Origin: Candidatus Zhuqueibacterota bacterium
Lineage (GTDB): Bacteria > Zhuqueibacterota > Zhuqueibacteria > Thermofontimicrobiales > Thermofontimicrobiaceae
Length of the DNA: 64,000 bases
Assembly (NCBI GenBank): GCA_049322915.1
Contig: JBMOPW010000011.1
Span: 70,642 to 134,641 of the forward strand
Reading direction: 5' to 3'
Shown piece after piece: positions 51,001-57,000 of this stretch. Within the stretch, counting starts at the first letter, position 1; every line of letters starts with the position of its first letter. Made by a program: the position numbers.

Positions 51001-54000
51001 GCATTTTGAGATCATCCGAGCTGAAATACAAGCTATTCTTTTTACAGCATACCTTGATAGTCCCCAACGTTTTTTCCGGCGTCTTCAGCGCGCAGTAAAT
51101 CAACGGCTCGAACTCGCGCCGCAGGCTGTTGAAATCGATGTGCTCATTTTCCAGCTCGGTTTTCAACTCCGCCGGCAAATTCTCCATATCATCCAGTAAA
51201 ATATCCTCCGAAGTCCTGATGACGTAAAGCGAAATCAATAAATCGACCTGCTCAAACAACGGTGAAACTTCATCGATCACCTGTCCGTTGCAGGCCCTCA
51301 CCAGCGGCTTGTTTCTCTCATTAAGAAAAATCAGCCGCACCCTGGAGACATTAAATAGTTTGGTTACTTTCTCGGTGATTATCCGGCACAGTTGGTTCAC
51401 ATCCAGCGAATAGTTTATTTCGGAGAAGAAATTGTAGAGGAAGTTCATCTCCTTCCAGAATTGGGCGGTGGTTTTGACCAGGTCCTGTTTGTTGAATTCG
51501 GCGTTGAGAACTTCCTCCAACTGCTGCTGAAGAAACTCCATCGCCAGCAAGGCCTTTTCATTTTCCACCACAGTATCTGTCTCAACGAGGCGGAGCATCT
51601 CCTCGCCGTTGATGCGAATGGGCAGGAATCGCTGAAATGCCTTCCCGGAGCCGCAATCCCCGATAATGACGCGATCATCCACACTCGAAAGCAGCGCAAC
51701 ACTGAGTCCGGTGAACTTTTGAAAATTGTCTATCCTTCGGGCAATCTGTTTTTTTATGAGAATGCGTTCGATATTCATGACACGTGCTCCGAATGCGAAA
51801 CTTCCCGGCATGTAAAACTGAGCCTGACGTCTGCCCTGCCGGGGTTCAGAGTACTGTTTTTCATTGGGCGGTGACTGTCAATTCGTCGATGATTTTTATC
51901 AGCCTGTCCTCTTTCATGGGTTTGGTAATATGCACGGTAGCGCCTGCCTGAAGGCTTCGCTCCCGCTCACTGGAAACGGACAGCGCAATGACCGGGATTT
52001 CCCGCGTCTCCGGGTTTTGCTTCAGTTGTTCCAGAATTTCATACCCGCTTTTATCCGGGATCATCATATCCAGCAGAATGATATCCGGCTTGTGTTCCAG
52101 CACGCGGCGCATGGTGTTAGCCCCCTGCGTTTCGCCGATGACCTGATAGGGTTTGCCCAATAGCAACAGTCGAATCAGGTCGATAAAATTTTTATCATCA
52201 TCGATGTGCAAAATCTTTTTCATGATGTTCTGCTCCATTAGCCGCCCAATCCATCAATTTTCGGACATATCTTTTATCAGATCGAGAATACGATTCGTTT
52301 CATCAACGACAATCTGGGAAAACTTGTCGACCGCCTCGGGTTTTTTGCGATTGAATTTCTGAATGATCCGCGCTGACGTGAGAATGGAATTCAATGGCGT
52401 ACGGATTTTGAGAGACACAGAGCCTTTTCCTTCTGTGTCCAGCGCGGCAACATCGCTCAAGGTCAAATTCTGCAATTGACTTTTTTCGGGCAGGTGGAGC
52501 GAAACGTCGCTGACCGCTTCGGCCGCCGGCAGCGCGTTCATCAGCAGCAGCACGTACAACTCGATTTCCGATGAGCGAATTGGTTGGATAGTAACTTGAA
52601 ACGATACGCCGGCAGCCGATTGAATATCCACGACCGACTTTTCCATACCGCGCATCCGGCTTTCGAAGTCCTCCCGATCCACCGTTGGAAAGGTATCGTC
52701 GAACAGTTGACGCCAGTCTTTGCCGATACAATCACCGTGTCCGGCGCTCAGTTTCTCATTCTGGTAGACAATGGTGAGTTGTTCATCCAGAATTGCCAGT
52801 TCTTCCTCCAGCGTATTGAACAGGCTTTTGCGGATCATTTTTTCGATCTTGAGTTCCTGCCGGACAAAATCCAGCTCGCGCTCCAGCACCTGATTGTATT
52901 CAATGGTTTCACGGAACTGACGCTCCAGCATATCATTCACTGACATCAATTTCTCGTTTGCCTGTTTCAGATAAAAATTCACCGCCACGGTTGTCTGTTC
53001 ATTCGGGACCAGTCCCTCGTCACGTTTGCGCGAATTGTTGTTCTGTTCATTCGATTCCACAATAGCCACCATATTTTCAGTTCCGAAAGTCAATTCATTT
53101 TTCAGGTCGGCAAAGTCCTCCCGGACTTTCTCACACCATGACAACATACTGTCCGTTGCTTTGTTGCTGTATCCGCTCACCTTTTTACCCTTCGTATTCA
53201 GTTCATAAAACTGGAAATACCCATCCGCTCCGTTGTTGCAATATCAAAAATGCGATTGAGCTGCGTCGTGAAAAAAGCGCTCTGAACATCCGGCGTCAAT
53301 TCGCACAGTTTCAATTCCCCGTGCAGTTGAAGCGTTCGTTTCGCCAGAGAGACAATGGAGCCCAGTCCCGAGCTGTCGATATAGCTGACATTCTTCAAAT
53401 TCACCAGTATTTTCAGATAGCCCTGATCCAGGTATTTATTCAATTCGGTCTTGAATACATTTGAATTTTGAATATCAAGCTCTTCCGCTTCCGGAATAAT
53501 AATCAGCACATCGTCTTCAAATTTTTGCAACAATTTCATGCCCGAATCCTTCGCAGTTAAACCCTTCTCAATCAATATCGGCTGTGTTCATGCAAACTTT
53601 ATTCGCAAGCTCCGACGGCCTGAAAGTAACCTTTTGAAAATCAATCGGTTTCCCCACCAGCGACAGATGTAACATGTCCAGTGTCCGAAATCAGCCAGCC
53701 GAAAAATGCTGCCTGTTTTGCTGAGAGAAAACACCCGGCTGATTGGCAATGAAATGTTCGAGTGAAGAAAAGTGAGGCGGCAACACAGGAAAAGGCATGC
53801 AGTTCCCGAAGGCGCGTCCGTAGCGAGAAATTGGTCGCAAGCGAACGATGAAGCGAAACAGTGGGTTGATAGCGCAGGGCCGGCAGGCTCACACGTGCAA
53901 TTCGATCACATCTTTGTCCTGCAGGATATAATCTTTGTTGATGCGTTGTCCTTCAAAAACCTGAGCGCCCCACACCCGCGCAAATTTGAGGTGCTGAGCA

Positions 54001-57000
54001 AAGTCTTTGTGCACCGCGTTGGCAAAATCCATTAGCGTGCTTCCCTGCCGAAACGTGAACGGTCGGTTCATTTCGGCGTCATGCCCAGGGCGCTTGGAAT
54101 AGACGCGAATGATTTGCAGCGATTTCACTATTCCCGTTCGGATGCTCTCCAAAGTCGCTGGCCTCGTCGCCGATGCCGGGAGAATCCTGTACTGATCTCG
54201 ATACAGGTCATCAAAGATCTGAAAATTCTCCCCGGCCCGGAGCGCATCGATTTTATTGAGAACGACCAGCGAATTCAGATAGCTCCAGTAGGGATCAATG
54301 GTTTCGGTTGGGGACGGCGCTGTCGACTGGATTTTATATTCGTGCAGAATGCGGAGGGTCAGTTCAAATTGGTCGAGGATGTCATCGCGGCCCGCGTCCA
54401 TCACAAGGAGCATCATATCGGCGACGCGAATGATGGAGGGCGCCCAATGCTCCAGATATTCCTCTGAAAGGGGCGGCAGATCGATGAGCTGAATCTGGAT
54501 GTCCTCGAAGGGCATCATGGCCGGGTGAAACATGCGCGTGGTGAAGGGATAGTCCGCGACTTCAAGCTGCGTGGCTGTCAACGCTGAAATGAGCTGACTT
54601 TTTCCCACATTGGGAGGGCCGACCACAGCCACCTGGCCAGCGCCCTCTCGTTCCACGCTATAACTGAAGCGATGCCCGCCTTTTGACTTCTTGATTTCGA
54701 CTTCATCTTTGAGCCGGGCGATCTTCCGCTTGATATCCGCCTGAAGCTTTTCCGTCCCTTTATGTTTGGGGATGTGCGCCAGCATATCTTTCAACGCCTT
54801 CATCCTTTCGCGATCATCTTTGGCGTTTTTATACTTCTCTTCGGCTGCTAAATATTGGGCTGTCAAATTAGCGGGCATCGTATTTCCTCCGTTTTACCTG
54901 ACCAGCAACATCTTTCTCACATCGACAAATGAGCCGGCCGCGATCCGATAAAAATAGACGCCGGAGGGAACTGTCTGATGTTGAGAGTCACGGCCATCCC
55001 AATGCCAGGCATAATGTCCTGCGCGCAATTCGCGATTGAAGAGCGTAATCACTTCTCTGCCCCGAACATCAAAAATGACGAGGGAAACAGGCGTTGTTTC
55101 ATCCATATCCAGCCCAAAACTGAGCCGGGTGTTTTGGTTGAATGGATTGGGATAATTCTGCTGCAAGTAGCACTTCTCCGGCATCGCCGGTTCCGTTGCC
55201 AGTAATTTCACCTCTGCCAGGTCCTGCTGCAGGGACACATCGTCGATGTACCATTCCAGTTGCTCCTGCCCCGGGTCGTGCACCGACTGGGCGCGCAGCC
55301 GAATCAGAATCGCCGGTTTGCCCGGACCGCAGAATTGGGACAATGGAAAATAGAACTCCGTCCACGGATTGGCAACGCCCACCAGCGGCTGGCCCACCGG
55401 CCGCCACGTGCGTCCACTGTCCGCACTGACATCCACGTAGCCGACCAGCAGATCCGCGTCCAGCGAAAACCGCGACCAGATATGCAGGGAGGCAACGGAC
55501 AGGTTTTGCAGATTCACCGGACGGGCAGTGACAAAGCAACGGGCAGCATTGGCGCCGAAATCCTGCGGCAGAGCAAACTTCAACGACCGATCGCCGGAGT
55601 GCGCCAGTTCGGAATTGAAATACCAGCCTTCGCCAGCCAGCCAATCCTGTTCGCCATTTTCAAAACTTTCCAGACCCATCGGAATGGTGAACATATCGGT
55701 TTCAACGCGATTCCTTTTCGCGGCGACGTCATGAGCCGAAAAATAATAGGCCAGCGTATCGCCGGGATTGCCGGCCACGCGCAGTGCGCCGGTGAAATTT
55801 CCCGAAGCGACATCCGGGTGCATTTTCAGACTGTCCGCCATTCCGTCCTTCAAAAGGTAATGCACGTACACCGAGTTGGTGTCGACGCCGATATTGTCGC
55901 TGACGGACAGGCTCAACGACAGGCTGTCGATGGGATAGAATGAAGTGACCAACGCCGGTTCGTAGACGATGGTCGGTTCGATATTGTCCGCGCCGGTGAT
56001 GAAAGAGTATGTTTGAATCGGCGCCCAGCGCGGCAATTTTTCAACGTACATCGCCTCATTTCGGGCGAGAAGGTAGTAATAAATTTTCCGGTTACTCTGC
56101 GCCGGAATGGCCGCTTCAAATGTGGTGTCGCTGACGGGCGAAAGAGCCTCGATGTAATAAGGATCGAACCATCGGGAAGCGCTCCAGAACAGGAGCAGGG
56201 AATCGGCCACCAGCGGCGCCGGCGATGTAATCGTCGCTGTCACGACAATGGGGTTGGTTATGTCCTCTGTGTCCTTCAACGGCGTGTGGACGATGACCGG
56301 ATTCGACTTCCAATCCATGGTCGGCGCCGGAAGGAATGTCGGGTACGGATCCGAAGCAAGTCGAGCCATGAGCGAATTGTCCAGCGCCCCGGCCGAGAAA
56401 ATCGCGCTGCCCTGGGTTTGCACCAGTCGACAGATGCCAATCTGCTGAACAACGCCATCGTCGGTGTCCACATAGCCGCTGGCATCGATGCCGGCGTACA
56501 CATGCCGTCCCCAGGTGCTGCGCGCGTGATTATTCACCCAGCTCTGGTACGTGGACATATTATCGGTATAGGTCATGGGCGCGATGAAATCGATTTTGCC
56601 CTTGCTCAGCCAGTCGCGCGGATCCTGTAAACGCTCGTTATAGCCGTCGTAATAGCTGCCCCACACAGCGGCGGAGACTTTCACCCACGGCTTACGGGAC
56701 ATGGTTCCCTCGTAGACGCGATAGACAAAATTGCTCACCTGATTGCGCCGCCACTGCGCCCACTGATAGGGACTGGCGTACGGACTGCTCAACCCTGTCT
56801 CCTGTTTGAATCGCGCCACACTGGTGGAATCGTAGGAATAGGCTGTGCTGGGATAGCGAATATAATCCATGTGCAGCCCATCAATGTCATAATTTTCCAG
56901 CACATCCATGAACACATGGAAGACATGGTCGGTGAATGCGGGAATTCCCGGGCTGCCGGTGGCGTAGCCCGCGGCGCCGGGATCCATGGGAACGCCGGAC

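Follow-up and report, generated by a model that had tools for sequence, protein, structure and literature searches.

Drg/Rbg GTPases, represented by yeast Rbg1 (PDB 4A9A and 7RR5), yeast Rbg2 (7NRC) and canonical archaeal Drg, are built from an HTH, a G domain and a TGS domain, in that order. Reviews hold that bacteria have no Drg. In recent preprints its bacterial orthologue is taken to be ObgE; bioRxiv 10.1101/2024.04.20.590341 terms ObgE/CgtA the 'bacterial Drg ortholog'. A DFRP partner is a feature of eukaryotic Drg; in bacteria, according to one preprint, no conserved Dfrp is found. As described in papers on the yeast proteins and their ribosome complexes, Rbg contacts rRNA through the HTH, helix alpha4 and the TGS domain, the sole contact of the S5D2L insert is A-tRNA, and ribosome binding depends on the zinc finger of Tma46. 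A yeast protein with S5D2L deleted still hydrolysed GTP, co-sedimented with polysomes and complemented at 30 C. Our literature search found no paper on a bacterial Drg, as the genome-wide survey's note had claimed, although automatic annotation already names some members.

The window (the whole stretch of 64,000 nucleotides analysed) encodes such a protein, here called P0001. Its gene occupies positions 53889..54878 of the minus strand, on which all features described below also lie, and encodes 329 amino acids behind a ribosome-binding site (GGAGG, 54886..54890) located 7 bases 5' of the ATG. The assignment draws on the open reading frame, Pfam, PDB searches, an AF2 model and Foldseek. Pfam placed MMR_HSR1 at residues 82-172 and TGS at 257-327 (53898..54110, E 3.6e-13), while the Drg extension family PF16897 remained below threshold (19.6 versus a cut-off of 35.2 bits). 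Drg/Rbg was the best match by both sequence and fold: yeast Rbg1 and Rbg2 were the only PDB sequences with E<=1e-10 (E 2.6-5.2e-29; 3 of 35 listed), their chains took the top four Foldseek places, and the TGS of DRG1 (2EKI) matched that of P0001 at E 2.5e-9. P0001 is a true Drg-family protein, with N-terminal helices, G domain and TGS, belonging to an accessory bacterial clade, B1. This upholds the survey's identification and its statement about the PDB matches.

Other Obg-family proteins are more distant. ObgE/CgtA shares the Obg-family G domain and the lack of S5D2L, but an Obg fold replaces the HTH and TGS, DxPG and GxGxG are kept, and P0001 scores 49.1 bits against a TIGR02729 cut-off of 280. 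YchF/OLA1 shares a G domain followed by a C-terminal TGS-like domain but has no N-terminal HTH; P0001 retains a GTP-type G4 (NKID) and scores 33.8 against the TIGR00092 cut-off of 279 bits. ObgE, YchF (two copies) and HflX are encoded by separate genes of the same genome, each above its cut-off, so the coexistence noted earlier stands.

The N-terminal helical region (residues 1-66, 54681..54878) comprises, in the AF2 model and alignments, an extra helix at 7-18 that canonical Drg lacks and an HTH at 22-66, whose predicted helices (22-34 and 43-66) can be aligned to Rbg1 12-44. At the HTH apex (PKHKGT, residues 37-42, 54753..54770), K40 aligns with the invariant lysine of canonical Drg. This lysine was present in all 111 bacterial rows of our alignment and in 23/23 canonical rows, a class defined here by the G3 glycine motif. 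G1 (GPPNVGKS, residues 87-94 including Asn90, 54597..54620), G2 (YPFTT, 110-114, 54537..54551, T114 in 97% of bacterial rows), G4 (NKID, 208-211, 54246..54257) and G5 (SA, 236-237, 54168..54173) are intact; together with Asp133 and Asn90 they are conserved at 81-100% in bacteria. R151 (89%) and TGS H290 (100%) are also conserved, and the bacterial N-terminal region is basic, with a median net charge of +7. The invariance that residues 121-128 seemed to show in one alignment came from the search pattern itself and was left out of account.

The remaining nucleotide-binding motif has been remodelled. G3 reads DLPP instead of DxxG (residues 133-136, 54471..54482), hence DxPP where Drg has DxPG, and switch II (54417..54470) is five residues shorter than in Drg and has lost the GxGxG signature, with R151 and D154 of helix alpha4 retained. 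The G3 glycine was absent from 111/111 bacterial rows (Pro in 105, Ala in 6), the GA..GKGxG signature occurred in none of them, and 109 had the shorter switch II. When rows were classed by HTH apex, independently of the G3 motif, glycine occupied G3 position 4 in 22/22 canonical rows, 7/82 long second-class rows (see below) and 0/41 short rows. Since ObgE and the typical YchF copy of this genome retain DxxG and the GxGxG signature, the bacterial Drg state is derived. The alignment shows that G1, G2, G4, G5 and the HTH apex persist in clade B1, whereas the glycine of G3 and five residues of switch II are gone. The survey had recognized a Drg and its missing insert but overlooked these changes at G3 and switch II.

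The insert had been equated with S5D2L by position alone. In predicted structures, a second-class Thermococcus protein has a beta-beta-alpha-beta-alpha element at this place, which PMC3510508 helped to locate, while P0001 has a 14-residue coil between two short strands (183-184 and 199-200; 54279..54332). The median distance from G3 to G4 was 75 residues in bacterial rows versus 129 in canonical Drg. Predicted topology as well as position thus confirms that the missing element is S5D2L. Its absence from bacterial rows holds, but it is not a bacterial trait as such: loss recurs in a second archaeal class, and the tree indicates that it happened several times.

That class, rather than canonical Drg, holds the nearest insert-bearing relatives of bacterial Drg in our trees, which the survey had missed along with a second insert-less bacterial lineage, B2, found in Chloroflexota with G3 intact. 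The second archaeal class is a putative grouping made here by sequence comparison, and no description of it was found in the literature examined. Members include proteins from Thermococcus (WP_297421115.1, 44% identical to P0001), Methanofastidiosum, Hadarchaeota, Thermoproteales and Woesearchaeota. They share with P0001 the N-terminal extension (an MPxN helix, the extra helix of P0001), the PKHKG apex, TGS motifs and side of the tree. Unlike P0001, most retain S5D2L, switch II is mostly 25-26 residues long, and G3 position 1 is Glu in 63/84 rows. Canonical rows fell on their own side, excluding P0001 (99-100 SH-aLRT, two trees).

Among 149 GTDB relatives, each of the top 80 had a bacterial title and 39-75% identity over the full length, as previously claimed. 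The gene does occur in many phyla, but "widespread" needs tempering: it is patchy, present in 6-40% of genomes in the six phyla sampled; a repeat sample from the window's phylum is not counted as a separate one. No conserved operon emerged over 110 loci. Recurrent neighbours (gyrA in convergent orientation at 17 loci, of which those labelled include Nitrospirota; a DegT aminotransferase at 7; a PolX/PHP gene at 6) were all lineage-local, no DFRP-like gene was among the conserved neighbours, and gene neighbourhoods offered no link to translation genes. The co-oriented gene upstream of P0001, a GHL10 glycosyl hydrolase (54894..57452, 15 bases away), adjoins the Drg gene at 7/110 loci including the window's own; this is no more than local synteny, and a functional link is unlikely. 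A search of 72,556 plasmid records returned one full-length match, and none for B2. One plasmid copy, from Paraburkholderia hospita mHSR1 and with a degenerate G2, lies directly 3' of an EF-P paralogue, an anecdote on the side of a ribosomal role; seen at 1/276 loci, it was dropped as a functional link to EF-P. None of 77 pattern hits was confirmed as viral. Three longer proteins reached E<=1e-30 among 8000 scored, and the one inspected as a possible domain fusion looks frameshifted.

Our preferred reading, to which we give roughly even chances, is that P0001 works at the ribosomal factor site without contacting A-site tRNA and with slow or ribosome-gated hydrolysis. By homology to the Rbg1/Rbg2 ribosome structures, it would bind GTP and, as a monomer, occupy the factor-binding site: the HTH and G domain would lie against the large subunit and the TGS against small subunit helix 5, with no grip on A-site tRNA. 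Docking is favoured because the parts through which Rbg contacts rRNA are the conserved ones. On chemical grounds, a proline at G3 lacks the backbone NH that would hold the gamma-phosphate, for which reason hydrolysis may be slow or ribosome-dependent. A Gly-to-Pro change in an HflX (PDB 3kxk), G235P, is said to abolish hydrolysis; a literature search for this effect found no confirmation. P0001 could then stay for long periods on ribosomes that are paused or idle, acting alongside ObgE, YchF and HflX and not as a replacement. Against this reading stand the need for the Tma46 zinc finger in yeast, the lack of a conserved bacterial Dfrp and the absence of translation-gene neighbours. The residues running up to helix alpha4, which makes the sarcin-ricin contact, are also remodelled, so the partner could be different.

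A less probable account holds that P0001 is a fully active Drg-like GTPase with K+-dependent cycling, tolerating the proline and short switch II and helping paused ribosomes to resume elongation, like Rbg1 without S5D2L. The fully kept P-loop Asn and Walker B Asp argue for continued catalysis, as does the conservation of the other G motifs; DRG1 is stimulated by potassium, and yeast without Rbg1 is reported to be rescued by ObgE, which has no S5D2L either. However, the glycine missing from every bacterial row is invariant in canonical Drg, and this genome already encodes ObgE.

Somewhat less likely still, P0001 was repurposed off the ribosome as a GTP- or alarmone-binding regulator whose HTH and TGS engage a different RNA or protein target; the second archaeal class would then be a paralogue that had already left translation behind. 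Of the long second-class rows, 75/82 have a degenerate G3, and the repeated S5D2L losses, patchy distribution and lack of translation-gene context fit this account. Against it, the lysine at the HTH apex and the surface of the TGS are no less conserved than in canonical Drg, and ribosome-bound structures occur among the Obg-family relatives in the fold list.

The trees bear on a further alternative. Contrary to the earlier note, in which Obg/YchF sequences fell inside the bacterial rows, an Obg/YchF/HflX outgroup here fell outside them, across a branch from the Drg proteins including P0001 (support 94/86, unstarred; 128 columns). The best tree suggests that the gene was transferred from archaea; the earlier caution about the root nevertheless holds, as the AU test did not reject a bacteria-first root (p 0.468). 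One tree hinted at two separate bacterial acquisitions, which was not upheld: with B1 and B2 constrained to one clade, AU p was 0.684 and the tree was 10 log units better. Given these two values, an ancient Drg can still be entertained, though the full scenario strikes us as improbable: Drg predating the bacteria-archaea split, B1 and B2 forming one vertical insert-less clade, S5D2L added later in archaea, and B1 a non-hydrolysing, GTP-locked pseudo-GTPase holding paused or dormant 70S ribosomes. Finally, although the hosts are nearly all MAGs, binning of archaeal DNA into bacterial genomes is refuted by bacterial neighbours on a 134.6-kb contig with GC and GC3 similar to those of the Drg gene, by its presence in 11/13 other genomes of the family Thermofontimicrobiaceae and 66/167 of Zhuqueibacterota, by the single clade of bacterial rows (97-99 SH-aLRT, two trees), and by a copy on a complete Paraburkholderia plasmid record.

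Contrary to the reviews, a Drg relative and ObgE thus occur side by side in many phyla, and the second archaeal class qualifies the view of a single kind of Drg in archaea. With no known DFRP partner, P0001 is a natural partner-free, S5D2L-less Drg, which makes the core mechanism approachable on well-defined 70S systems with no need for DFRP. At G3, the fixed change from Gly to Pro raises the question of whether conventional hydrolysis is dispensable for the function of an Obg-family factor. Having neither the domain that touches tRNA nor an important glycine of the switch, bacterial Drg may act on ribosomes in a different way.

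The open reading frame P0001 (329 aa; 53889-54878, minus strand) is preceded by GGAGG 7 bases before its start, and its GC content (0.525; GC3 0.633) is within the span shown by five of the window's other genes. Pfam placed MMR_HSR1 and TGS above cut-off and PF16897 below, and all 21 listed NCBIfam models scored under their cut-offs. Yeast Rbg1 and Rbg2 were the only PDB sequences with E ≤ 1e-10 among the 35 matches listed, as the genome-wide survey's note had claimed, each aligning in two stretches with the middle of Rbg skipped. An AlphaFold model from an 87-row alignment (pLDDT 90.3) had Rbg1/Rbg2 chains as its top four Foldseek matches (E 3.7e-20 to 1.5e-13; next 3.4e-11). 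VIA-align ranked 4A9A first (Z 20.9, rmsd 3.6 over 249 residues); an Obg-family chain came within 1 of this Z, but only its G domain aligned. Sequence and fold thus bear out the note's assignment to the Drg/Rbg type. Its statement that ObgE, YchF and HflX co-occur also holds, as the genome encodes ObgE, two YchF and HflX elsewhere, each above cut-off. The second YchF (L233, G000:C20:265623-266687; above the TIGR00092 cut-off) is diverged, with altered P-loop and switch I. P0001 is a real gene of the Drg lineage that lacks two canonical Drg features, the S5D2L insert and the usual G3/switch II. JGI/IMG already tags some members 'ribosome-interacting GTPase 1', so the Drg-type assignment is already present in databases.

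A metagenome pattern scan (116 stretches) brought up proteins sharing the N-terminus of P0001. They formed a short group of about 300-345 aa and a long one of about 374-389 aa, with the long forms named Thermococcus, Methanofastidiosum, Woesearchaeota, Hadarchaeota and Thermoproteales. The Thermococcus long form exceeded the PF16897 cut-off, aligned with Rbg2 in a single stretch covering the insert, and gave a model with a TM of 0.74 to 4A9A. Its insert (residues 198-252) is predicted to be beta-beta-alpha-beta-alpha, the fold that a passage of PMC3510508 gives for S5D2L, tethered by a short beta5/beta9 sheet. At this site the P0001 model has a 14-residue coil between two short strands (183-184 and 199-200). 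Judged by this predicted topology, the gap in P0001 corresponds to S5D2L, as had been proposed. Among the 43 positive genomes of the L011 (Desulfobacteria) phylum sample, an insert-bearing profile matched in two pieces in 40 and in one piece in 3, and spanned the insert in none. Short forms repeatedly stood beside long sisters in our trees, which implies that insert loss is recurrent. Within the Hadarchaeota group, P0136, P0197 and P0204 are insert-less with full-length switch II, an independent archaeal loss. Two 487-aa proteins (P0347, P0355) of what we term the second class, archaeal Drg with an MPxN start and PKHKG apex, have 216 aa between G3 and G4, perhaps through duplication of S5D2L.

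The G3 motif of P0001 is DLPP. Across 111 bacterial rows (80 GTDB relatives, 30 phylum-search loci and P0001, with some genes counted twice), position 4 was proline in 105, alanine in 6 and never glycine. Counted from G3 through helix alpha4, the span was 21 residues in 109 of these rows, versus 26 in canonical Drg, while G1, T114 (G2), D133 (G3 position 1), G4 and G5 were 81-100% conserved. Proline also occupied position 4 in 20/20 Desulfobacterota-sample and 7/8 Chloroflexota-sample profile-found loci, and in all 9 parsed Planctomycetota-sample loci (10 in all). When 148 of 150 best representatives (two removed for length) were classed by HTH apex alone, G3 glycine was found in 22/22 canonical, 7/82 long second-class and 0/41 short proteins, the apex being missing in 3. 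In the genome's ObgE and its typical YchF copy, both DxxG and the glycine-rich switch are intact, which marks the bacterial state as derived.

Each of the 80 best GTDB relatives, out of 149, had a bacterial title, with identities of 39-75%, matching the earlier result. Whole-genome searches of the window's phylum recovered the gene of this insert-less clade (B1) from 66 of 167 genomes (42 of the 105 good-quality ones); within the window's family, 11 of the 13 other genomes carry it. In 121-genome samples of other phyla, it occurred in 43 (L011, Desulfobacteria), 30 (L013, Acidobacteria), 10 (L041, Planctomycetaceae), 8 (L079, Dehalococcoidia) and 7 (L021, titled Thermodesulfovibrionales) genomes, each count including the seed genome at E-value thresholds from 1e-30 to 1e-40. 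These phyla were picked for already having matches, with Bacillota, Pseudomonadota and Actinomycetota outside the sampling. A complete Paraburkholderia hospita plasmid record held one full-length copy. The B1 gene is patchy, accessory and nearly always single-copy. One protein with 65% identity to P0001 (P0045, 2.3-kb contig) is labelled Methanosarcinales archaeon, reflecting misbinning or back-transfer.

A quick-search tree of 102 rows, leaving out insert and switch II columns, placed canonical Drg on one side (SH-aLRT 99). The bacterial rows and two low-GC proteins formed a clade (99) within the second class, adjoining the Hadarchaeota group (93, unstarred). Those two proteins (L092, L103; 299-304 aa, contigs of 32-33% GC) were nested within the bacterial clade. 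In a second tree, Hadarchaeota and Thermoproteales long forms joined the bacterial rows in a starred set (96). The survey's note had the Obg/YchF outgroup inside the bacterial rows; with Obg, YchF and HflX over 128 columns, the outgroup instead fell outside, and the bacterial rows joined second-class long forms (92/88, unstarred). Its caution about the root stands, as a root on the bacterial branch was not rejected (AU p 0.468). From these phylogenies, the gene was probably transferred from archaea. Chloroflexota and Planctomycetota rows paired in two trees (97-100), pointing to either exchange between bacteria or mislabelled rows.

Profile searches also recovered a second insert-less bacterial lineage, B2 (L263-L268, e.g., L263:1444-2370), in 6 of 121 genomes of the L079 (Dehalococcoidia) phylum sample. 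These 309-311 aa proteins have a divergent HTH, G3 glycine and intact switch II, and a G3-G4 span (62 aa) shorter even than that of B1. Names attached to B2 are Ktedonobacterales and Chloroflexota, and atlas clusters, taken as leads only, list Actinomycetota and Chloroflexota; B2 is probably present in Actinomycetota too. In the second tree a long branch separated B2 from B1, but constraining the two to group together improved the tree by 10 log units (AU p 0.684); these results are compatible with one origin or two.

Counting against ribosome docking, gene context gave no pointer to translation except one EF-P paralogue among 276 loci. This paralogue, which scores below the efp cut-off, lies directly upstream of the Paraburkholderia plasmid copy (L240:7238-9020, NZ_CP024940.1), whose G1/G2 are degenerate. 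In 17 of 110 loci (L021, L058 and others) the next gene downstream is a convergent gyrA, and a PolX/PHP gene lies downstream in 6 of 110, from Acidobacteriota and Planctomycetota. Downstream of P0001 is a partner-switching cluster (49240-53575, minus strand) of STAS, HisKA-only, receiver and GAF-SpoIIE phosphatase proteins, ending by inspection with further receiver-like and STAS-like frames. The lone apparent PPK2-domain fusion, P0482, appears frameshifted.

As the note says, published passages describe Drg as confined to archaea and eukaryotes: one in PMC8629797 gives Drg archaeal homologues, 'though not in bacteria', and others in PMC4263083 and PMC9545696 concur. According to a passage of bioRxiv 10.64898/2026.05.13.724932, a single Rbg-like protein is the general case in archaea, and in one of bioRxiv 10.1101/2024.04.20.590341 Obg goes under the name 'bacterial Drg' and an unpublished phylogeny is referred to. 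As in the note, our literature search gave no paper on bacterial Drg, nor any on the second archaeal class; most subscription journals fell outside its scope, so an earlier mention is possible.

According to passages of bioRxiv 10.1101/2020.07.06.190082 and PMC8040806, the large subunit is touched by the HTH and G domain of ribosome-bound Rbg, with helix alpha4 reaching the sarcin-ricin loop; TGS touches small-subunit helix 5, and A-site tRNA is the sole contact of S5D2L. The former also states that yeast Rbg1 requires Tma46 for ribosome binding, a point against the mechanism proposed below. A passage of PMC8629797 describes a highly conserved lysine at the HTH apex, which by alignment would be K40, and a passage of PMC6310460 gives the P-loop asparagine a role in cation binding. 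Rbg1 without S5D2L is still active at 30 C and still on polysomes, and its HTH and TGS are essential. B1 keeps the essential parts: K40 (111/111 rows), R151 of helix alpha4 (89%), H290 (100%) and the basic N-terminal region are conserved. In P-loop GTPases the amide of the G3 glycine bonds the gamma-phosphate, which proline is unable to do, and hydrolysis might therefore be slow or ribosome-gated. Taken jointly, we consider it an evenly balanced prospect that B1 proteins would bind GTP, hydrolyze it slowly or only when gated by the ribosome, and dock on the ribosome independently of tRNA.
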